Source: Mobula birostris (Eukaryota). From it: a stretch of 64,000 bases of DNA. The notes beneath the pieces are model-generated. The model worked only from the letters and a program-made list of their open reading frames with translations, was not told the origin of the DNA and made no database searches. Positions 7,001 through 46,545 of the stretch are shown piece after piece. Location: NCBI RefSeq assembly GCF_030028105.1, contig NC_092370.1, positions 71,474,098-71,538,097 on the forward strand, read 5' to 3'. Both the position numbers and the translations under genes were made by a program. Every line of letters begins with the position of its first letter. Positions within the stretch are counted from its first letter, which is position 1.

Positions 7001-7984
7001 TGGGCGAAGAGAGTTGGTGGGTGAGGAGGGTTGGTGGAAACTGTAAGAGGGAGCTAAGAAAGATGGCACTGGTGGTTTTTGCAGCACAAGGCGACTTCTT
7101 CCAGTTCAACCACAGAACAGCTTCTTCTTCTCTTATGTCTTTCTTTTCTTTTCAAGATGTCAGGGTTCTGTCAAGAGTCTGTGATCTACAGCTCAAACTA
7201 TGGTTATTTGGAAGTGGTGGGTCTTCACACTGGCTGTGTGGCCTGGCACTTCACTATCTCCAGGAACGGCTTGGAAGACATGTGCCGTCAGGGAGCGCAT
7301 CCATAGGTAACCCGGCTCCTCGCTGCTTTCACTGACTGAAGCGTCATGGAGGACTGAAACATCAAGACAGCAGGCGGTACATGCTGCTGTCAGAAGAAGG
7401 CCTCTGTACTTGAGCGATCCCTCCCTCTCTCTCTCGATGGCGAGTGACAGCCTGTTGGTCTTTGGGTTGGGGGTGGGTGGGGGGGGTGAGGTTGCTTGGA
7501 GAGGTGATGTGGAAGATTGTAACATTGGAACAGCAAGTCTTTGCTTTCGCTGCTGCAGGAGAATGACCACTTTCTCCCTCGATGGGGGAGAGCCTGTCTG
7601 AGATACTGAAGTGCTGGGTTAAGGACTGCAGTTTTTGATGAACTAAAGATCAAGGTCTCTTGTGTGGAGGGGGGGGTGGGGGTATCAGTGTTTCTTCTGG
7701 CGCAAGGTTGGGGGGGTATTGATGCTTCTGTTGTTGCTTGTGCGGTGGGAGAGGGAGGAGGGCTTCGGGGTTCTGAAGTTCCTATTATTCATTCTATGGG
7801 GTTTCTTCTTTTGTGGATGTCTGCGAAGAGTAAGAATTTCAGATTGTAAACTGAATACTTTCTCTGAAATTAAATTGAACCATCTGAGGTGTGAAAAGTA
7901 GGTTAAAGGGAAAATTAGTGAGGGATTAGGTTGTTCTCTGAGCTGGTTCAGATTATGTCGTGACCAATATGGAATATGTGGACA

Positions 7985-8555
7985 CAAGGTATTCTGCAGA
8001 TGCTGGAAATCCAAAGCAACACACACAAAATGCTGGAGGAACTCAGCAGGTAAGGCCGCATCTATGGAAATGAATAAACAGTTGATTTTTCAGGCCAAGA
8101 TCCTTTTTCATGGCTGAAAACAAAGGGGAAAGATGCCAGACTAAAAAGATGAGTGGGTGGGGAAGGAGGCTAGCTGGAAGGTGATAGGTAAAGCCAGGAG
8201 GGTGGGAAAGGTCCAGGGCTGGAGAAGAAGGAATCTGATAGGAGAGGAGAGAGGACTATAAGAGAAAGGGAAGGAGGAGGAAGCCCAGGGGGAAGTGATA
8301 GGCAGATGAGAAGAGGTAAAAGATCATAGTGGGGAATAGAGAAAGGGGGGTGGGCTGGAAATTTGTTTACTGAAAGGAGAAACCGATATACATGCCATCA
8401 GATTGGAGGATATCCAGACGTTATACAAAGTGGTGCTCCTCTATCCCAAGGGCGGCCTCATCTTAGCACAAGAGGAGGCCATGGACTGACATGTTGGAAC
8501 CAGAATGGAAATCAGAGTTAAAATATTTGGCCACTCGGAAGTCCCACTTATGGTG
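7985..8555 (-). mobile_element. Penelope fragment
   Basis: tctgcagatgctggaaatcc...cacaaaatgctggaggaactcagc end, followed by a remnant of the 3' ORF region. Confidence 0.75.
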
Positions 8556-13525: not shown

Positions 13526-15559
13526 ATTTCTATTTTAACTTCACAAACAGATCCATTAGCAGAGAAAGAAAAAAAGATGCACAAATTAGGAGAAAATAAC
13601 TGAGTCTATAAAACAAAACATAATTTCTGATACACAATGAACATTATTTTACAGAGTACAAGGTTCATCTACAGTAAGTGAACAGAATGGTGGCATGAAT
13701 TTCAAAACTAACAGTATTGCTTACTGAAAGTGCATCCGTGGTTCACCTTTCAGATTACTTTTATTTAGCACATTTACATTGAAACATACAGTAAAATATG
13801 TTGTTTGCGTTAACAACGAACACAGCATTGGGGCAGCCTGCAAGTGTTGCCTTGCCACACATTCCGGCAACAACATAGCATGCCCACAATACTTTGCAGA
13901 ACAACACAGAACACAACAAGCTGAACAACAATAGTCAAACAAGGCCCATTGTGTCCTTCACACCCATGCACATACACAGTCCTCCAACCTCAGGACAGGA
14001 AGTCTTCAGCCTCCAGAAGACTCATGGATTCAGACACTGGGGTTCAACTTCCCCAGTGGAGTGGTGAAAGATTCAGGGCTCCATCGATCCAGCCTCAACG
14101 TTTGAACTTCCGACTGACCTTCAGCGTCGACCCCAGAACTTACTGATAATAACAAAAGAGGACTCTGGATGACGACCCCAAACACTTGGCCTTGAACTCC
14201 GTGTTCCTCAATGGCGGGATCTTAAATATTAGGACTGAAACTATGGACTTACCAATGACGAGACCCTGAACACAAGGCTTCGAATTCCAGTTTTACCAAC
14301 TCGCATATCTTGGGGGTCACCAGACCTCATGCCTCCTACCTACACAGAACTCCATTTCCAGAGCCTACCAACAACTTGCTGACCTGGGGTGGGGGGAGGG
14401 GGAAGAGATGGCCACCAGCCCTTGCTAGTCTGCCGGCCCGACATCCAACCATGGACGTTCTTCATCCTATGTTCACATCACTGGCCTTCAAGCACAGAGC
14501 GGAGGCCTAGACTCTGGCCTAACCTCTAATTCTCCCATATCCCAGTCCCCAGATGCTACACTGACCCCTAACTCCCCACTGTCCGCAAGATCATCCTCAA
14601 GAATTAAAAGGCAGCTGTAAAATAACTCAGTCCGAGAAATGACCTCGAAGAAAGTTCTTAGGAAATCTGCAAGTTTTAAATCACATCGCAGTACCATTGT
14701 TCATATGTAAATTTCAACTTCTGTGGAGGGTCCTGTTCCTTCTCAGAAGCTGGATAAAGAATGTAAAAATTGTTATTTGTGGAAATATAAGAGTACTATA
14801 TTTTGGTAGTACTGTATTTTGAATATGGTGTTTTGTATGCAAGTACAGAGGGGCTGAGTCAGGTTGATAATATGATGTTTGAAAGAATTTGTCTGACAGT
14901 CATGAAAAATTTAAATTTTTTTTAAACTTGGCCTCAATTCAAGGAAAAGTGGCAGATGTTTGGCTGACCCACATCACCCACTCACATTTAACATCATGTG
15001 TGTGTGTCTGTTGCTGGCAGTCTAACAGAACAACACCTCGCTGTAATAGGTAATAACTATTGTAAAGGATTAATTTATAGACATAGGTCAACGCACATTT
15101 CTTCAGTACTATGTGATCCAAGATCGATTTTATCTGAAGTTAATCAGGTTACTGATACTTCTGGATGAAAATGCAACCTTGAACTGGCCAGATCCAGGCA
15201 GGAACGATACAATCAAGTCTGATTTTACACATGTATGAACAAAATGGATGTCCATTCTGTCTTCAAATGTTCTTCATACAAAGTCTGCTGGACCCATATT
15301 CCGATGGGTTGACTATACTGTATGTGCAATCATTTTCTCTTGCTCTTTCACGACTGCAGTCTCATTGTTTAATGTACTGTACCTCAGAGCATCATTACTG
15401 TGACCCCTGCCTCACTGATTATCCTGCACCTTGCATAAGCAAGAGGATATGCATGACACAAGCTCTCTATCAGGGTATTGGACCACAGTGGAGATGATAA
15501 ACAGTTATGTCGCCCCACCACCACCACCAAACAACTACACTCTCCCTCACCTCCAAAGT

Positions 15560-15709
15560 AATACACACAAAATGCTGGAGAAACTCAGCAGATCAGGCAG
15601 CATCTCTGGAGAGGAACAAGGAGCCGATGTTTCAGACCCAGACCCATCGTAAGTTCTTCCAGCAATTTGTGTGTGTTCCTCAGGATTTCCAGCATCTGCA
15701 GGACCTGTG
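15560..15709. mobile_element. Penelope-derived fold-back fragment next to the LTR element
   Basis: acacacaaaatgctggag ... ttccagcaatttgtgtgtg in inverted arrangement. Confidence 0.65.
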
Positions 15710-15714
15710 TTTAT

Positions 15715-15914
15715 TGTGGTGATATCATGCACAATGATGTGCCAGTTCATGATTAGACAGAGCACTGAGTATGTGCAGGATTGTCAGAATGTTCCAGCAC
15801 GTACCTGGGTTAAGACGTGTTTGTTTATTACTGTAAATAAAAGTTCTCTAATTCTTCCAGAATATGATTCTTTACTGTTAACTCACAGTATGCTTAAACA
15901 GAAGTAACATAACA
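15715..15914 (+). repeat. 5' LTR (200 bp)
   Basis: TGTGGTGATATC...CATAACA, contains AATAAA. About 90% identical to 17818-18015 by manual alignment. Confidence 0.95.
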
Positions 15915-15929
15915 TGCTGTCAGAAGTAG
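15915..15929 (+). other. Primer binding site, tRNA-Leu type
   Basis: TGCTGTCAGAAGTAG directly after the 5' LTR resembles TGGTGTCAGAAGTGG, the complement of the tRNA-Leu 3' end. Confidence 0.8.
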
Positions 15930-16010
15930 TTCTGGAAGAATAATACGGGAGAATCAAGAGTCAAAGATAATAGAAAAAAAAAGAAAAAAGTTTGAACTGT
16001 AAATGGTAAA

Positions 16011-16827
16011 ATGGAAGGATTACAACCCCCACCAAAACTTCAGCTGACTGGCAATGTAGCTGAGAATTGGAGGCTATTCAAGCAACAGTTTGAACTGTAC
16101 TTATCAGTGATTGATTATGAATAAAAATCGGAAAAACAAAGCTGCGCTTTTGCTCCATGTAATCCGGAATGACGCAGTAGAGGTATATAATAATTCTGTC
16201 TCTGAAGATGGAGATAATTTCAATTTAAAGTCGATAATGGACAGATTTGAAGTATTTTGTATACCTAAGCTTAATTTGACGTATGAGCGATATAAATTCT
16301 TCACATGTGCGAGAGAGCCGCTGAAACAATTGATCGGTAAGTTACCGAGTTATGAAAGCGGAGTAGAACACATGAGTTTGGATTGCTCACGGACTCTCTC
16401 ATTAAAGATAGACTTGTTTATGGCATTTGAGATAATGCTCTGAGAGAAAGGCTGTTGAGAGAGCAAGATTTAAATTTTGAAAAAGCTTTGGCACTTTGCA
16501 AAGCTTCTGAGACCGTGACGTTGCAGGCTGAAGAGCTTTTTGTCGAAAACTGCAATGTAAACACTGTAAAAAAAAAAGCGCGAATACATCAAGAAATATA
16601 ATAATACTTCGACAAAACCGACAGAGAGCAAGAAGGCAGTGGAAAGAAAAAAGTCTTTTGATCGCTGTGCGCAGGAACATCGTCCAAATCAGTGTCCTGC
16701 ATATGGCAAAATTTCCAATGGCTGCGGTAAGATTAATCGTTTTTCATGCTGTTGTAAAAGTAGAAAGAAGGAAAATAAAATGAAACAAGTAAATGCTGTG
16801 CTTGAAGATGAACATGAGGAATTTTAA
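16011..16827 (+). pseudogene. Disrupted gag
   Basis: MEGLQPPPKLQLTGNVAENWRLFKQQFELYL, LTYERYKFF, DNALRERLLRE and a degenerate double zinc knuckle (CAQEHRPNQCPAYGKISNGCGKINRF), broken by stops and frameshifts. Confidence 0.85.
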
Positions 16828-16833
16828 ATAGAT

Positions 16834-17532
16834 GTGCTTTGTGAAAATAAACAAAGTACGAATGACTGGACTATTCCATTGCAAGTGAATCAAAACAATA
16901 ATCTGTTTAAACTTGATACTGGAGCGCAAGTAAATGTTCTTGCAGAATCTGAGTTTAATGCTTTAAAGACTAGACCAAGGTTACATCAGACAAATATAAA
17001 AGTGACTGGGTATTCAGGTGCAGACATTCCAGTTAAAGGAACATGCGTAGCAAAGGTATCATACAAAAATATTGTGCATACGCTTTCATTTGTGGTCGTG
17101 CCAAAAAATGTACAGTCAATTCTGGATTTACCTTCCTGTGAAAGACTTAATTTGGTGAACACAGAGCTGAAGCGCCAGAATGTTGCATTACAGTCGGCAG
17201 AAGGTGATGTCGCTCGACTGCAGGTCCAGCTCATGGAGGCAAATGCTGACATGGAGAATATAAAAGCAGTAGCTGCAGTGTCTGAGACGACCAAACAGGA
17301 GGCAACTGATGATGTGAAAAAGCAATGGCAGGAGGAGATTGCTTCAATGCAAGCGATGATGAAAGAGACACTGAGAGAATATGAGATTCAGTTTCATCAC
17401 CATCTAGAGCAAGAACGCTCACAGTGGGCACAGTATAAGGAAGAAGTGAAATCACAAGTGAAAGAATTGAGAAGTATTATTGAAATGGTGAAGTCTCAGC
17501 ATAAAGAAAGAGATTACACAGTTAATGAATGA
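16834..17532 (+). CDS. Chimeric 232-aa ORF: retroviral-type aspartic protease fused to RABEP1-like and SH3KBP1-like coiled coils
   Basis: FKLDTGAQVNVL active site and ILDLPSCERLNLV protease end, then ELKRQNV...MENIKAVAAVSETTKQEA...LEQERSQWAQYKE, then EVKSQVKELRSIIEMVKSQHK. The frame is open, but expression is unknown. Confidence 0.7.
   Translation: MLCENKQSTNDWTIPLQVNQNNNLFKLDTGAQVNVLAESEFNALKTRPRLHQTNIKVTGYSGADIPVKGTCVAKVSYKNIVHTLSFVVVPKNVQSILDLPSCERLNLVNTELKRQNVALQSAEGDVARLQVQLMEANADMENIKAVAAVSETTKQEATDDVKKQWQEEIASMQAMMKETLREYEIQFHHHLEQERSQWAQYKEEVKSQVKELRSIIEMVKSQHKERDYTVNE
17164..17442 (+). pseudogene. RABEP1: Captured RABEP1 (Rabaptin-5)-like fragment, part 1
   Basis: Aligns without gaps to recalled human RABEP1 DLKRQNAVLQAAQDDLGHLRTQLWEAQAEMENIKAIATVSENTKQEAIDEVKRQWREEVASLQAVMKETVRDYEHQFHLRLEQERTQWAQYRE. 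Confidence 0.88.
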
Positions 17533-17570
17533 ATTAGATGAAGAAGATTCATATTTCATTACAAATGGAA
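17440..17570 (+). pseudogene. SH3KBP1: Captured SH3KBP1 (CIN85)-like C-terminal coiled-coil fragment
   Basis: EEVKSQVKELRSIIEMVKSQHK/KEITQLMNELDEE/IHISLQME (two frameshifts) versus recalled CIN85 [45 protein letters not shown]. Confidence 0.8.
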
Positions 17571-17621
17571 ATGGAACGTGGATTGACTGATCTAAGGAGA
17601 CATTTGTCTGAAGGACAAGAA
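17571..17621 (+). pseudogene. RABEP1: Captured RABEP1-like fragment, part 2
   Basis: MERGLTDLRRHLSEGQE versus recalled RABEP1 AEREIADLRRRLSEGQE, the direct continuation of part 1. Confidence 0.8.
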
Positions 17622-17730
17622 GACAAAGTGAGGATACAAGATAAAAGGAATATGTGAACACAGACCAGATCATACATGGTCCAAACAGAGGAGGGAGTGG
17701 TGTTAAGAAAGAACCGCCAAGGCTTTAAGA
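17619..17730 (+). pseudogene. Integrase C-terminal (GPY/F-like) remnant
   Basis: DKVRIQD and (T)RSYMVQTEEGVVLRKNRQ resemble the Mag-type GDxVRI...PRSYxV...RRNR motif. Confidence 0.7.
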
Positions 17731-17804
17731 AAGAGCCAACTTCAGAGTTTCAGTTATCTGATATAGATGTGTTTTGATTAACGTTGTTAATTGTTTTTCT
17801 TTTT

Positions 17805-17817
17805 AAGAAAAGGAAGA
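17805..17817 (+). other. Polypurine tract
   Basis: AAGAAAAGGAAGA immediately 5' of the 3' LTR. Confidence 0.85.
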
Positions 17818-18015
17818 TGTGGTGATATCATATGCAATAATGTGCCAGTACGATTGGACAGAGCACTGAGCATGCGCGGGATTGCCAGAATGTTCCAGCA
17901 GGTGGCTGCGTTAAGACGTGTTTGTTTATTACTGTAAATAAAAGTTCTCTAATTATTCCAGAATATGATTCTTTACTGTTAACCCACGGTACGTTTAAAC
18001 AGAAGTAACATAACA
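17818..18015 (+). repeat. 3' LTR (198 bp)
   Basis: Direct repeat of 15715-15914, preceded by the PPT and followed by the TSD. Confidence 0.95.
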
Positions 18016-18559
18016 TTTATGATTTGTTGTCCCTCTCTTCTATAGCAACCTTTAACGCAACTGGTCTGTGGCTACTTTGGAGATGGGTCCTTTAAGGTTT
18101 TACAGCCTTCCATGTACAAAACATGCTAGTCTGCAGCTTCCAGATATTCCCGTGTATCCCAAGGCTTTTGCTCCTTTCCAAATGGGCACAACAGCATCAC
18201 CTCAATGCCCTTACAATGAGTTTTGTCACTGCTCCGGGGGGGGAGGGGTGCAATGAATGCTAGCACCAGGCTATGACTTCTTATCTACTCTTAATGGTTA
18301 CAACCGAAAATCGAGGTATAGCTCCCTTCATTTTCTTTGTCTGTATGTCATCATTCCTGATCTCCCATCTTTGCACTAGCACAAACAATGAAAAAACACA
18401 AAGGGTTGGAATGAAAATGGAAAACAAAATGATATTCCAAAACAGAAACACGAGATATCAACCATCTGTTTGTTAAAATATTAAATTACAGGTATTGTTG
18501 TTTGGCCTCTTGTGCATTTTCACGCACAACAGTACCTAGAATTTACAGAGAATGTTGCG

Positions 18560-22604: not shown

Positions 22605-23110
22605 AAAATTAGCTTTATTGAGACACGTGTAATGAAACACACAGCAAAATGTGTTGTTTGTATCAAATCAAATCAGGAAAAATATCTATAGGAAGAGATA
22701 CAGTCGACATTTCAGGCCGAGACCCTTCGTCAGGACTGACGAAGGGTCTCAGCCTGAAATGACGACTGTACCTCTTCCTATAGATGCTGCCTGGCCTGCT
22801 GCGTTCATCAGCAACTTTTATGTGTGTCGCTTGAAATTCCAGCATCTGCAGATTTCCTCGTGTTTGCATCAGGAATATTATGCTGGGGGAAGCCCAGAAG
22901 GGTTGCTACATTTCCAGTGTCAACATAGCATACTCATTAACCTTAACCCATCTGTCTTTGGAATGTGGGAAGAAACCAGAGCCTGGGAAGCAACCCATGT
23001 GGTCACAAGGAGAATGTACAAACTCCTTACAGACAGTGTTAGAAATTGAGCCCCAACTGTTGATCACTGGCGGGCACCGTAAAGAGTTGCGCTAACCGCT
23101 ACAATGCCAG
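22605..23110 (-). mobile_element. V-SINE-like element interrupted by a Penelope insert
   Basis: tgtgggaagaaaccagag...gtacaaactccttacagac core in reverse orientation. Confidence 0.7.
22680..22867. mobile_element. Penelope-derived fold-back insertion with hammerhead motifs on both strands
   Basis: Near-perfect inverted repeat 22684-22785; probable TSD ATCAGGAA; inserted in a SINE. Confidence 0.78.
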
Positions 23111-25706: not shown

Positions 25707-27284
25707 CATTGGACAACACAGATTTTGCTTCCTGAATACTTCTGAGTGTACCTTATGAGTTTTGGGCTGCTGATCATTAAAATTGCCATTTTTTTACATC
25801 ATCTTTATTTCAATTCATAATTCAAGTCAGAATAATTGACGCCAAGATTAAAGGCAGCATTTTTGTTGGTCCACAAATCAAACAGGTCATCAATGTCAGG
25901 CAACTTGAAGAACTTCTAGTGGATCCGGAGAAAATCACATGTTAGGCATTCAAGAATGTTGTTGAAAATTTTCTCGGCATTTGCAGAGCATCAAACTATG
26001 TGCAGGTAGTTGACAACATGTTTCAAGCATACAAAACCACAAAGTGCAGCATGTCGCTAAAGATTCATTTTCTACATTCCCATTTAGAATTCTTCCCTGC
26101 AAATCTTGACGCTGTCAGTGATGAGCATGGTGAAAGGTTTCACCAGAACATTGGGGTCATGGAGAAACAATAACAGGACAACTGGAATCCATCAATACTG
26201 GCTGATTATTGTTGGACACTTCAGTGAGAAGCCTCAGAGTACAAATGAAAATCATCAACAAAAAAAATGTGAAGTTATCCACTTTGGTGGCAAAAATAGG
26301 AAAACAGATTATTATCTGAATGGTGGCCGATTAGGAAAAGGGGAGGTGCAACGTGACCTGGGTGTCATTATACACCAGTCATTGAAAGTGGGCATGCAGG
26401 TACAGCAGGCGGTGAAAAAGGCGAATGGTATGCTGGCATTTATAGCGAGAGGATTTGAGTACAGGAGCAAGGAGGTGCTACTGCAGTTGTACAAGGCCTT
26501 GGTGAGACCACACCTGGAGTATTGTGTGCAGTTTTGGTCCCCTAATCTGAGGAAAGACATCCTTGCCATAGAGGGAGTACAGAGAAGGTTCACCAGATTG
26601 ATTCCTGGGATGGCAAGACTTTCATATGAAGAAAGAATGGATGAACTGGGCTTGTACTCGTTGGAATTTAGAAGATTGAGGGGGGATCTGATTGAAACGT
26701 ATGAGATCCTAAAGGGATTGGACAGGCTAGATGCAGGAAGATTGTTCCCGATGTTGGGGAAGTCCAGAACGAGGGATCACAGTTTGAGGATAGAGGGGAA
26801 GCCCTTTAGGGCCGAGATTAGGAAAAACTTCTTCACACAGAGAGTGGTGAATCTGTGGAATTCTCTGCCACAGGAAACAGTTGAGGCCAGTTCATTGGCT
26901 ATTTTTAAGAGGGAGTTAGATATGGCCCTTGTGGCTACGGGGGTCAGGGGGTATGGAGGGAAGGCTGGGGCGGTGTTCTGAGTTGGATGATCAGCCATGA
27001 TCATAATAAATGGCGGTGCAGGCTCGAAGGGCCGAATGGCCTACTCCTGCACCTATTTTCTATGTTTCTATGTTTCTATAAAACATTTTTAGCTTAATTG
27101 ACCTATTGTAAAGCATCAACACCATTATGCAATTAAACACATGATACTCAATTGAAGTTAATTTCTTGTTTCTACATGATACAGGTAGTCTAAAATTATA
27201 TTTGTGCTCTGCTTCAAGTGGTCTATCATAAACAAGAGTAATTTCTGAGGAAGCAACGCTTTTGACAAAATTTGTTGTCCAGTG
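25707..27284 (+). mobile_element. Internally deleted Chapaev3-like (CMC) DNA transposon interrupted by a CR1
   Basis: TIRs CATTGGACAACACAGATTTTG and CAAAATTTGTTGTCCAGTG with a 3-bp TSD TAA on both sides. Transposase C-terminal remnant MSLKIHFLHSHLEFFPANLDAVSDEHGERFHQNI at ~26051-26152. Confidence 0.75.
26265..27078 (+). mobile_element. Young 5'-truncated CR1-clade LINE
   Basis: Open ORF2 C-terminus (KCEVIHFG...LYKALVRPHLEYCVQFWSP...FFTQRVVNLWNSLP), 3'UTR and (TTCTATGT)n tail. Confidence 0.92.
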
Positions 27285-39569: not shown

Positions 39570-40925
39570 CAACCTGCTTCAAAAGGGCAACAATCATTCC
39601 AGTGCCCAAGAAGAGCAGGGTTAGCTGCCTCGACCACTATCATTCAGTAGCACTCACACCTACGGTGATGAAGTGCTTGGAGAGGTGAGTTATGGCTTGC
39701 AAGGACTTGGACCCACTACAATTTACCTATCACCACAACAGGTCAACAGCGGATGCAATCTCATTAGCTCTTCACGTGGCCTTGAATCACCTGGACAATA
39801 CAAATACCTATGTTTATTGCCTACAGCTCAACGTTTAACACAATTATTCCTACAGTTATGATTGATAAGCACCAAAACCTGGGCCTCTGTACCTCCCTCT
39901 GCAACTGGGTCTACGACTTCCTAACAGGAAGACACAATCTGTGCAGATCAGAAATTACATCTCCACCTTGCTGACAATCAACACTGGCACACCTCAAGGA
40001 TCTGTGCTTAGCCCCCTACTCTGTCTACACCCATGACTGTGTGGCTAGGCACAGGTGAATTTGCTGAACACACAACTATTGTTGGCAAAATTTCAGATGA
40101 TGTCGAGAGGATGTACAGGAGTGAGATATATCAGCTAGTAAAGTGATGTTGCAGCAACAACCCTGCACTCAATGTCAGTAAGACCAAAGAACTGATTGAG
40201 TATTTAAGAAAGGGTAAAACAATGGAACACACACCAGTCCTCATAAAGGGATCAGAAGTGGAGAAAGTGAGCAATTTCAAGTTCCTGGATGTCAATATCT
40301 TCCTGGGCTCAACATATCAATGCAGCTACAAAGAAGGCACAACAACAGTTACATTTCATTAGGAGTTTGATGAGATTTTGTATGTCACAAAAAACACTCA
40401 AATTTCTACAAATGTGCAACGGAGAGCAGTCTAGCTGGCTCTATCACCGTTCAGTATGGGGAGGGCTAGCCACTGCACAGGGTCCAAATAAACTGCAGAA
40501 AATGGTAAACTCAGTCAGCTCCATCATGGGCACTAGCCTCCCAGCTTCCAGGACATCTTCAAGAAGTGATGCCACAAAAGGGTGGCATCCATCATTAAAG
40601 ACCCCCATCACCCAGGACATACCTTGTTCTTGTTGCTACCATTTGGGAAGGAGCTACAGAAGCTTGAAGGCACACACTCAATGATTCAGAAACAACTTCT
40701 TCCCCTCTGCCATCTGATTTCTGAGTGGACATTGAACCCATGAACACTACCTCACTACTTATTAATTTTTATTTGTGCACTTCTAGTTTAACTATTTAAT
40801 ATATATACTTACTGTAATTCTTGTTTGTTTTCTAGTATTATACGTTGTATTGTACTGCTACCACAAAGACAACAAGTTTCATGACTTATGCCAGTGAGAT
40901 TAAACCTGTTTTTGATTCTGATTCC
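39570..40925 (+). mobile_element. Rex1/Babar LINE 3' part
   Basis: TIIPVPKK and PQG motifs, with a gattctgattc tail. Confidence 0.88.
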
Positions 40926-41589: not shown

Positions 41590-42995
41590 TGTAAGAATGA
41601 AAGAAGAGGGGGGCGGGTGGTATGGAAAAAATTACGAGAAGAAGAATTTGATGATCATGCCATCAGGTTGGAGGCAACCTAGACGGAATATGAAATGTTG
41701 CTCCCCCACCCTGAGAGTGGCTTTATCATGGCAACAGAGGAGGCTATGGATGAATATGTTGGAACAGAAATTGGGATAGGAATTAACATGGCTGGCCACC
41801 GGGACATTTCACTTTTGGCAGATGTAGAAGAGGCTATATTGGGAGCCCCTGACTTTGGCTGCTTGCGGGGATAAATACCAGATGGGAAATCATTGGGGGG
41901 GGGAGCGAATGGAGAAGGTAACCATAAAGGGAGCAATCCCTGTGAAAAGCAGAGAGCTGGTGGGGGGGAGGAGGAGATAAAGATATGTTTGGTGGTAGGA
42001 TCCCATTGGAGATGCTAGAAGTTGCAGAAAATGATGTATGTGGAGGTTTAAGGGGTGGTGGGTGAGAACAAGATGAACCTTATCTCCGTTAAGGCAGCAG
42101 AAGGTGGGGTGAGTGCGGATGTCTGTGAAATGGAGGAGATACGGGTGAGGGCAGCATCAATGGTGGAGGAAGGAAAACTCCGTTCTTTGAAGAAGGAGGA
42201 CAACTCTGATATCCTAGAAAGGAAAATCTCAACCTGGGAATAGATACAGCAAGATGAAGGAACTGAGAAAAAGGATTAGCATTTTTTACAGGAGACAGAC
42301 GAGAAGAGGTATAGTAAGATAGCCATCAGAATCAGTAGATCAATAAGATATTGGTAGACAGTTGACCTCCAGAGATGGAGAAGAAAAGATCTAGAAAGGG
42401 AAGAGAGGTATCAGAAATTGTTCAAGTGAATTTAAGGGTAGGATGGAATTTGGAGGTAAAGTTGAAGAAATTGACAAGCTCAGCATGGATGCAGTAATAC
42501 AATCGTCAAAGTAGCGCAGGAAGAGTAGGAGTGCATTACCAGGGAAGGCTTGGAACATGGACTGTTCTATGTAGCAAACAAAAAGGCAAGTGTTGCTGGG
42601 GCCCATGTAGGTGCCCATGGTTTCCCCTTGAGTTTGGAGAAAGTGGGAGGAGCCAAATGAGAAATTGTTGAGGGTGCGGACCAGTTCCGCCAGACTGAGG
42701 ATGTTGATGAGGGAGGGGAACTGGTTGGGTCTTTTGTTGAGAAAGAAGTGGAGAGCTTTAAGGCCTTATTGATGGGAGATAGAAGTGTATAGGGTCTGGT
42801 CATCCAGGGAGAAAACGTGACTGCATGAACCAGGGAATTAAAAGTTGTTGAGGAGATCAAGAGCATGTGAAGTGCCGTGGATGTAGGTGGAAAGGGAATA
42901 AACCATGGGGGATAGAATGGAGGTGAGGTATGCAGACACGAGTTCAGTGGGGCAGGAACAAGCAGAGACAATGGGTCTCCCTGGACAGTCAGTGT
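41590..42995 (-). mobile_element. Penelope-like element RT region (decayed)
   Basis: CPGRPIVSACSCPTE, MGTYMGPS and LRYFDD are PLE RT motifs. Confidence 0.85.
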
Positions 42996-44764
42996 CACGA
43001 ATCACAGTTTTGTGGATGGTGCTTTGAGTTAGTGAAAACATCCTTCATGCAATGCAAGCTTAAAGTGTTGCTGGGAGAAATTAATCCAGTGCTTTAGCTG
43101 TTGTGCACTCTCAGTGCAGCCAGGTTTTATTTCTAGACAGAAGAGACTGCAGATGCTGAAATATGGAGCCACAAATGAACAATCTGCTGGAAGAACTCAA
43201 GAAGCTGAAGAGCATCCATGGAGAGAAAGGTGGAGTTTTGCCTCACCATCAACCCCACCACCACCACACCCACAGATGCTGCTCAGTGTTTTCATGGTTT
43301 GTAAGGGAATGTAGAAATATTTCTACCAATATAAAAAAAGACTAAAATCATTATATTACAATGAAGCATCATGCTCAAATACTCACTTTAATATGCTATG
43401 AACTACCGTAGAAATTTATGTTAGAAGAACCTTTTGTTTTTGGAGAAAACCTTTCTGGAGAACTTTGCATTGTTTGATCCTGAAGCAAATCATCATTTAA
43501 ATGTAGCTTTTGCTAATGAGCCATGGTGAAAATAAATATGGGCTGTCCAAAATACTGTTCAGTTAAGTAATAAAATCAAATCAAGGACGAATATCCATTA
43601 TTTTGTAACAGAAAATTCCAGAAGGGAACAAAAATCAGAAAGTAAAGCAAAAGGAATAATGAAGTCTAATGAAAATAATACTAGGTTACTTAGTAAAATA
43701 AAATGACATTTTGTTTCCTGATAGAGATGAATTTGTAAAAAAAAATTATATTACTTCATCTCATTCTTCCCACTAAATTAATAGCAGGCCTGATGCATTT
43801 ATGTCAATAGAAATGAAACAACTTCACATCCTTTTACTTCATTGAATTACAGAATAGCAATTGGTTCTAATTACCCTTTGGAGCCTTTGGAATTTAAAAG
43901 ATATCCTTGGGAATGTAGGTATGGCTCTTAAATAAATTTACTTTGAGAGCAATCAAAACACTTATTCTGATGAAATGGAGATGTTAGCTCTGTTTCTCGG
44001 GTGCTGCCTGACCTATCGAGTATTTCTCTGTTTTGATTTCAGACTTCGGCAATTGCAGTGTGTTGATTTTTCAACTATTTGTTGTGCAGTTTTGACTACC
44101 AAAAAGCCCATCATCACTGGGCTCAATGATGAGTCCATCATCATTGTGATGGTACTGTGTTTGTTGACCATGAAGTTTTAAACTCAAATGAAAATCGTAA
44201 GCCCTATCCAATATAAATAGCCATAAGTACCCTCACTGAGGAGTGGTTATACTGTAACTCCCAATCTTCAAAGACTAGTTTACTTCCCTGTTTATCCTCC
44301 ACAGTGAGTTTAGCTATCAATACCCACTATATGAGCTTTGGGTCCCCTCTCCCAGCTGGAAGATATTTCCAACTAACAAAGTAGTTTAAACACAGTTCAT
44401 TTATTTTCAGTGATACATGTTTAAATTCAAACAACATTCTTAAAATACTTTTAAAACTCACAGAGGATTTCTATCTTATAAAAGATTTCCAAATTACATG
44501 CTTTTTTTTAAATACAAAGTATTTCCAATCATGGATATGATTTCTATAAGCTAAAAAGATATACCCATGAGCTGCAGATGAACCAGTCACAGAAATCGAA
44601 GGCAGAGGAATGGATTTTAGTTCACCCCATGTTTCTGTTGTGCTTCTTCATGTTCCTGGACCATTCCTAAAAAACCTGAACTTTTCTCTTAATTTATGCT
44701 ATTTCCTTTTGCCACTTGAATGACTTCACACACATATGATATTCTTACAGATAACTGCTGTCCA

Positions 44765-45109: not shown

Positions 45110-46004
45110 AACAGAAATGGTTTAAAAGCTTTTGGGGACAGAGTTCCCAGGTACCTACAATTAACGCTATGAAGCTGACTCCCTGAGTATACAAACCTTC
45201 CAACTTATTAATACGTCAGCTATTGATATGTTAATTGATAATATCAATCTAGTCTGAAAAATTTCTTGAATGAAACAACTTAGCCAGCATTTTTTATTAT
45301 GAAACTAGCCAATGTAAATAACCCATTGTCTTATACTGCACCTCTTGAGCAGGTGCTATGGGCAAGCATCCTGTGGCCCTATAAACCATGTGTTTACTTG
45401 CAAAGCTGTCTTTTTAACTTTAAACTGATTACTGCTTGCAGTTTACATTTAGAACAGAACTAGCTCCCATTTATGACCAGAAGCTAAACAAAGAATACTG
45501 ATTGGAAGCTTAATTTATTCAAAAACAACAGCTATGTCAGTTGCTATGTTTAGAAAGCTGAGCTTGGCAAAAAATACAAAGGCCCCCTTTAGCCCTAGAA
45601 AATAAATGTCCATCACAATATTTGAGACTTAAGATCTGCCATTAATATATTAAAAATAATAGTCTCAGGGGAAACGTAACAGATGAGTACTGTCCCAGAA
45701 ATGCACTGTGCAGAACAGTAATAGGGTAATTAGAATGGAAGTCACAAAACTGCAACCACAAATCTGAAATAGAAACAAAAAATACACAAAACACCCAACA
45801 AGTGAGGCAGCATCTTGGAGAGAGACAGAATTAATAATTCATGTCAAAGACCTTTTTGATTTTCTCTTTCTCCCTGAACTGACTGAGCATTCCCAGTAGT
45901 TTTCTTCCTTCCTATCATGTGAAATACTGGTCTGGCAGTGAAGTTCCTCTCTTTCAGTGGATGCTGCTTTCTTCACGGTCTGAATGAAAAGTCCAGAGCA
46001 ATTA

Positions 46005-46545
46005 ATTCCCTCCACAGCTGCTCGTGGCAATAAATTCCATAGATTCACCACTTTCTGGTTGAAGAAATTCCTCCTATCTCTGTTCTGAAGAGCTGTCCTC
46101 CTATTCTGAGGCTGTGCTGTCTGGTCCTGCACTCCCCCACCGTAGGAAACATCCTCTCCACCTCTACCTCTTTCAATGAGATCCCCCCGCCACCACACAT
46201 CCTTTTTAAACTCCAGAAAATACAGGCGCAAAGCCATCAAACGCTGCTCATACATTAACCCTTTTATTCCTGGGATCCTTTTTGTGAACCTCCTCTAGAT
46301 CTTCTCCAATGCTAGCACATCCTTTCTCAGATAAGGGGTCAAAATTGCACGTAATATTCCGAGCGTGATTTGACCAATGCCTTATAGAACCTCAGCATTA
46401 CAAACTTGCTTTTATAATCCAGTCCTCTCAAAATGAATGATAATGTTGCATTTGCCTTCCTTACAATCGACTCGACCTGCAAGATAATCGTTAGGGAATT
46501 CCAAGTCCCTTTGCACCCCTGATTTTGAATTTTTCTCCCCATTTA
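46005..46545 (-). mobile_element. CR1 fragment
   Basis: RFYKALV and FFNQKVVNLWNLLP motifs. Confidence 0.85.

Follow-up and report, generated by a model that had tools for sequence, protein, structure and literature searches.

Within the window, the whole 64,000-nucleotide stretch of Mobula birostris DNA analysed here, positions 15715 to 18015 are occupied by a 2.3-kb LTR retrotransposon, all of whose features lie on the forward strand. Both LTRs (15715..15914 and 17818..18015), which are 89.6% identical to each other, a primer-binding-site-like motif (15915..15929), a polypurine tract (17805..17817) and a 5-bp target site duplication (TSD), TTTAT, present as a direct repeat on either side of the element (15710..15714 and 18016..18020), can all be recognized, as a preliminary description of this locus had reported. 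The 5' LTR has TG...CA ends and belongs to the B-type LTR subfamily, and the motif at the primer-binding site, the same in nearly all copies of the family, is presumably a match to tRNA-Leu; tRNA and Rfam searches gave no match within the window. The gag region, with its zinc-knuckle segment (16011..16830), is collinear with a Gypsy-type polyprotein (P0142) and is degenerate in this copy, with stops and frameshifts downstream of the ATG at 16011. It is followed by an aspartyl protease containing the DTG motif (16873..17121; Pfam PF13975 and PF13650) and, close to the 3' end, by an integrase C-terminal tail (17624..about 17777), which ends at the stop codon of the family and has a 27-nt deletion found family-wide. 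Neither domain nor alignment searches revealed a reverse transcriptase (RT), an RNase H or an integrase core in the window type, which is consequently non-autonomous. The proposed loss of the pol core is correct for this RT-RNase H-integrase core, but the short integrase tail was kept.

The place of pol is taken by a cargo of 461 bp (17163-17623) that is 90-95% identical to host loci. The preliminary description had noticed some 460 bp of non-transposon sequence from 17164 onwards and attributed all of it to RABEP1; the extent is in agreement with our data, but we found two host genes, since the stretch 17440-17576 derives from SH3KBP1. The cargo is composed of RABEP1 exon 3 (17163..17365; 95% identical to host C29:53631355-53631153), the 5' part of RABEP1 exon 4 (17364..17451; 95% identical to host C29:53622118-53622031), the C-terminal coiled coil of SH3KBP1/CIN85 (17440..17576; host C7:81009762-81013016) and a resumed part of RABEP1 exon 4 (17572..17623; host C29:53622035-about 53621985), the last 12 nt of the first exon 4 piece overlapping with the SH3KBP1 match. 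The RABEP1 identity was borne out: a single 234-aa frame (16828-17532) contains both the protease (PF13975, E 3e-6) and a Rabaptin domain (PF03528, E 1.8e-41), and the best protein matches are to RABEP1 from devil rays and stingrays (87-88%). Host RABEP1, placed on C29 through its C-terminal domain, has exons that agree nearly residue-for-residue with a Mobula protein, and alignment to it demonstrates that the join between exons 3 and 4 in the element skips a 9-kb host intron exactly at MK/E, where its loss had been anticipated.

The SH3KBP1 insert, whose host gene we located on C7, comprises the final part of one exon, the following 64-nt exon and the beginning of the last one, without the introns, and is frameshifted in the window copy. 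The corresponding segment of a stingray gene model (P0008) matched SH3KBP1/CIN85 in 15/15 proteins found (93% to Mobula), and the CIN85 coiled coil of known structure (2n64, 5abs; E 3e-11) is likewise a match. A third cargo, observed in a sister subfamily, matches human SLU7 (E 0.006); in 14/14 aligned copies it corresponds to three exons of the host SLU7 gene on C8, spliced together and 84-92% identical. For the three donors (RABEP1, SH3KBP1 and SLU7) taken together, spliced host exons are present at 89-97% identity. We also noticed, at window position 17476, an amino acid change in the SH3KBP1 piece of 32 of the 34 window-type copies that is missing from the host, from the sister family carrying SH3KBP1 only and from both stingray gene models; it suggests continued amplification in the mobulid line, in a sampling that favoured window-like copies.

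An autonomous partner with the same LTR, which the preliminary description had proposed to look for, was in fact identified: among 20 elements fetched from the best 40 matches to the window 5' LTR, ten carry pol (two of them chosen for their RT match, the proportion among the rest being 8/18), eight carry RABEP1 and SH3KBP1 pieces and two are interrupted. The pol-bearing copies are collinear with the full polyprotein P0142, in which the Pfam domains follow the Gypsy order (protease, RT, RNase H and integrase). The family thus combines the Ty3/Gypsy features, namely TG...CA LTRs, a short TSD, a primer site, a polypurine tract and the domain order of its autonomous form. The helper leaves no space for env: its single gag-pol frame, 1290 codons long, terminates adjacent to the purine tract.

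The window type is a multi-copy family that retrotransposed as a unit. In a DNA search with this type, 40/40 scored candidates corresponded to places at 86-100% identity (30 were fetched), 13 of the 14 full-length copies have TSDs matching in at least 4 of 5 bases, the TSDs are distinct and no two of the 14 3' flanks are alike, in agreement with the transposition as a unit put forward previously and with the multiple copies of the junction then sought. The SH3KBP1-only sister family (66 scored) carries residues about 540-668 after gag-protease in 20/20 fetched elements, on a backbone just 75-80% identical to that of the window element. RABEP1-only elements, retrieved with host exon 4 as query, were found at 35 places with uninterrupted RABEP1, and 20/20 fetched are without SH3KBP1. 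The RABEP1-SH3KBP1 junction gave 68 exact matches (control 0); among 20 of these newly fetched, six resume RABEP1 as the window element does, 13 enter the third cargo and one, L150, was discarded as a chance match of the junction pattern, one of the 20 being cut by the locus end. Exact 20-nt junctions were counted 21 times for the window type, 53 times for SH3KBP1-tail and 43 times for the SLU7 type (control 0 for each), and hand-counted recapture estimates are about 56, 175 and 86, respectively. With the 35 RABEP1-only places added, the total is approximately 350 copies, an estimate that is coarse since top-scoring copies served as the reference sets; the candidate totals of a first look (717, 1278 and 8214) were rejected as copy numbers. 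In several copies of the SLU7 subfamily (L151-L168), the 3' LTR is preceded by an extra purine tract and by a duplicate of part of the integrase tail.

These data bear on the proposal that the cargo represents L1-type processed pseudogenes inside LTR elements, segmental duplication or misassembly, which we consider exceedingly improbable. Duplication did contribute among RABEP1-only copies: 13 of the 35 matches lie on C17 (C17:45.9-87.1 Mb; L138, L143, L144 and L147), and three of the four C17 copies examined are 98-99% identical across the whole 3.3 kb, flanks and an inserted repeat included, so that a larger unit with one dead copy was itself recently duplicated. In the window type, however, TSDs and flanks are distinct and are distributed over many contigs, the cargo replaces ~2.2 kb of pol rather than interrupting it and has neither a poly(A) nor a TSD of its own, and the same junctions are present in gene models of two stingrays; this origin is therefore refuted for the window type.

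At all eight junctions read, in natural copies and donors, we observed 4-7 nt common to both donors. In RABEP1-only copies, AGAGCT joins the RT start to exon 3, whereas the 5' junction of the window element (17163) has ACAGAG, upstream of the original one and common to helpers and RABEP1-only copies. The remaining microhomologies are GAAG, inside a 10/12 match (RABEP1 to SH3KBP1), AGTGGAA (SH3KBP1 to RABEP1), GGAGA (RABEP1 to tail), AGAAAGC (SH3KBP1 to tail), GAAG (tail to SLU7) and AAGA (SLU7 to tail). The idea of a captured spliced mRNA is supported, but the junction at 17163 is probably not its trace: the original capture point most likely lies in the RT start, as seen in RABEP1-only copies, and the 17163 junction most likely represents a later switch from element to element. 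According to 127+32 diagnostic columns, RABEP1-only and SH3KBP1-only elements are built on an A backbone and the window type on a B backbone, an assignment that covers LTR, gag, protease and 3' end (in gag, for example, 1289 B vs 34 A calls); in the integrase tail of the window type the A/B signal is limited to four columns (2 A, 2 B).

From these junctions and backbones we infer template switching between co-packaged RNAs, in an order that would be as follows. An A-type element would have captured RABEP1 exons 3-4 and a separate A-type element the last four SH3KBP1 exons, the captures being likely due to RT template switching at short microhomologies. Co-packaged RNAs of both elements may then have recombined into a RABEP1+SH3KBP1 form, the cassette may have moved onto a B-type LTR/gag/protease backbone, and a further crossover with a RABEP1-only element could have given the RABEP1-SH3KBP1-RABEP1 form of the window, while another branch would have captured the three SLU7 exons. 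The order of the last three steps of the main line (recombination, backbone change and crossover) is the most parsimonious one. Pol-bearing helpers with the same LTR likely multiplied the products. We regard it as highly probable that the window element is a dead copy of a non-autonomous Gypsy-type LTR retrotransposon, in which spliced RABEP1 and SH3KBP1 replaced RT, RNase H and integrase, likely through template switching at microhomologies, and which was likely multiplied by pol-bearing helpers with the same LTR.

Direct capture of the pieces by each subfamily from host mRNAs, with no exchange between elements, is already disfavoured and seems very improbable to us. The SH3KBP1 insert is equidistant from host and sister family, and in an SH3KBP1-only variant (L051, L052 and L055) about 45 nt of extra 5' host sequence are joined through a different in-frame 5' junction, with the same 3' junction, so that the host mRNA may have been read more than once; the variant implies a second read of this mRNA or an older, longer capture. 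Nevertheless, the SH3KBP1-tail 3' junction is identical in the SH3KBP1-only family and in the RABEP1+SH3KBP1 copies, four of which (L117 and L172-L174) end at the sister family's own 3' junction, and the RABEP1-tail junction and the synonymous differences from host RABEP1 are identical in RABEP1-only and window-type copies, which have different backbones. The SLU7-type copies also share these synonymous differences. No base of the SH3KBP1 insert separated the sister family from the host gene in a site comparison, and insert bases were dropped as a discriminator between the two; because no insert base is informative, the route of SH3KBP1 through the sister element is read from the shared 3' junction.

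Across 17 window-type copies, an uninterrupted run of 597 codon columns, which begins at the gag ATG and extends through the protease, both cargos, the integrase tail and every junction, has a sense codon as its most frequent codon. The corresponding values are 604 columns for SH3KBP1-only (n=7), 409 for short RABEP1-only (n=4) and 1290 for pol-bearing control copies (n=6). In the SLU7 subfamily, the column-wise frame was interrupted by a run of A in gag whose length varies (codon 257); for this type, and for two small groups (n=3 and n=4), junctions were read locally and are in frame. By hand tally, 15/15 junctions common to two or more insertions are in frame, where microhomology alone predicts 34-52% each, vs 4/18 private indels of at least 4 nt that are multiples of three (Fisher p 6e-6). 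Among single-copy junctions, 4/5 tallied are in frame, the one in L135 being out of frame.

The cargo itself decays neutrally, with no sign of use of its protein. Calculated without CpG sites, omega of the cargo is 1.0 for singletons and 1.7 for shared variants, singleton omega is 0.8-1.5 across all regions and gag omega is 0.7-0.8, not significantly below 1; selection on gag, considered from a raw pN/pS of 0.51, was discarded when the value rose to this range on removal of CpG sites. A domesticated retrogene under purifying selection is not supported, since 0/17 window-type copies are intact (longest open frame 384 aa) and omega is near 1. On our reading, spread was confined to products whose frame runs without a break from gag to the usual stop codon. 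The simplest reading of these sequences would be a filter acting on the source RNA and not on the cargo protein, the RNA likely having to escape nonsense-mediated decay or to be translated for packaging.

In-frame captures could also have spread because the cargo was useful to the element, if Gag-protease-coiled-coil fusions employed the RABEP1/CIN85 coiled coils for oligomerisation or membrane traffic, which we find quite unlikely. The 15/15 multi-copy junctions in frame would be expected, two of the three donors supply coiled coils from endocytic adaptors and the commonest codons show few amino acid changes relative to the host (for SH3KBP1-only, 0 nonsynonymous and 2 synonymous), but length and content vary freely, RABEP1 starting from four points, with or without SH3KBP1 or SLU7, pure transposon deletions are in frame too, SLU7 is a splicing factor and shared cargo variants have an omega of 1.7, a test of low power here because the copies are star-like. 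An extended version, in which the ray Gypsy lineage would be an in-frame exon-shuffling machine whose translated fusions with RABEP1 and CIN85 aided assembly or traffic of the defective elements, as a vertebrate retrotransposon counterpart of oncogene-transducing viruses, and in which a copy may even have been retained as a novel chimeric gene, also seems unlikely. A filter on the source RNA remains our preferred reading of the frame conservation.

Median LTR-LTR distances are 0.074 for the window type (n=17), 0.085 for pol-bearing copies (n=7) and 0.092, 0.101 and 0.072 for the other groups, an overlap that indicates that helpers and cargo forms were active together, long ago. Gene models of Hemitrygon contain all four window-type junctions, and also the SH3KBP1-only form, and a Hypanus model contains the first two, so the captures seem to be older than the split of devil rays and stingrays. 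The NCBI gene models concerned (P0008, P0009 and P0137, of Hemitrygon akajei and Hypanus sabinus), one of them named RABEP1-like, are copies of these elements. We give no age in years because the only rate found, in the available text of one source, is a per-generation one for sharks (PMC10587355). Contigs of three runs presumed to be RNA contain host mRNAs and some junction-crossing pieces (X19 records 20, 23 and 24; X17 record 15), for which a DNA origin is possible.

Oncogene-transducing retroviruses are replication-defective and helper-dependent, with a gag-cargo fusion replacing pol. The ray element is likewise defective, with cargo in place of pol and the need for a helper. Unlike in these viruses, the ray helper is without env, both capture junctions are inside pol at microhomologies rather than at splice sites and the copies are germline-fixed and dead. 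The analogy with oncogene transduction, drawn in the preliminary description, holds for the mechanism and for nothing beyond it, and the process is one described for animal LTR elements in the available text of Tan et al. (2016; Genome Res 26:1663, PMC5131818). According to that text, LTR-mediated retrocopies occur in flies, mosquito, zebrafish, chicken and mammals and include multi-gene chimeras and re-mobilised retrocopies. The ray elements resemble the cases presented there (PMC5131818) in that a segment of the internal ORF has given way to a partial spliced mRNA with both LTRs kept, in the microsimilarity at switch points (4-7 nt in the ray), in the chimeras of several parental genes with frequent in-frame products, in secondary retroposition as non-autonomous elements with shared switch points and in a cargo devoid of L1 hallmarks (poly(A) and own TSD). 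They differ from those cases, which have few insertion sites when re-mobilised, in that the ray subfamilies comprise tens to more than 100 copies, the three captures were likely exchanged among elements and carried from one LTR backbone to another, and a single gag-to-stop frame is preserved at every amplified junction. Maize Bs1, as reported in the same text (PMC5131818), is also an LTR element with exon pieces of three host genes and switch points shared among copies; it has 1-5 copies, one piece out of frame and a reported functional hybrid. In the ray, by contrast, every copy examined is disrupted, and decay is neutral.

The mechanism is therefore already known (Tan et al., 2016), and the scale, the serial shuffling and the frame filter were not found in print in the texts available. 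Literature searches, with Dfam/Repbase repeat libraries and supplements outside their scope, returned no account of these elements, and in term searches SH3KBP1, RABEP1 and SLU7 had 0 occurrences in the main texts of a manta genome preprint (10.64898/2026.10.27.761883) and of a shark/ray genome-size preprint (10.1101/2025.06.08.657570). The family stands out for its scale, for the successive reshuffling of pieces from three host genes and for a frame filter that can be measured. For a vertebrate, the fossil record of repeated gene capture that it offers is unusually complete: as donors, helpers, single-cargo parents and recombinants are found within one genome, the template switches between co-packaged RNAs can be followed stepwise. 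With 15/15 junctions in frame, it becomes possible to test whether a translatable frame is a requirement for the spread of defective LTR elements. Annotation is affected too: in two stingrays, copies already figure as RABEP1-like or uncharacterised genes, and such copies, when present in hundreds, can bias gene-family counts, read mapping and small-RNA analyses of RABEP1, SH3KBP1 and SLU7 in rays.

Elsewhere in the window, no host gene was recognised, judged by eye, among 16 frames of at least 130 aa. An inverted repeat of a common interspersed repeat (15552-15685; 34-nt arms, 79%) ends ~25 nt upstream of the 5' TSD, and similar sequence is found again near 7685-8089 and 22636-23049. Four stretches (26088-26981, 40271-40684, 42567-43001 and 45839-46294) contain frames that, by eye, are like remnants of a LINE reverse-transcriptase C-terminus.
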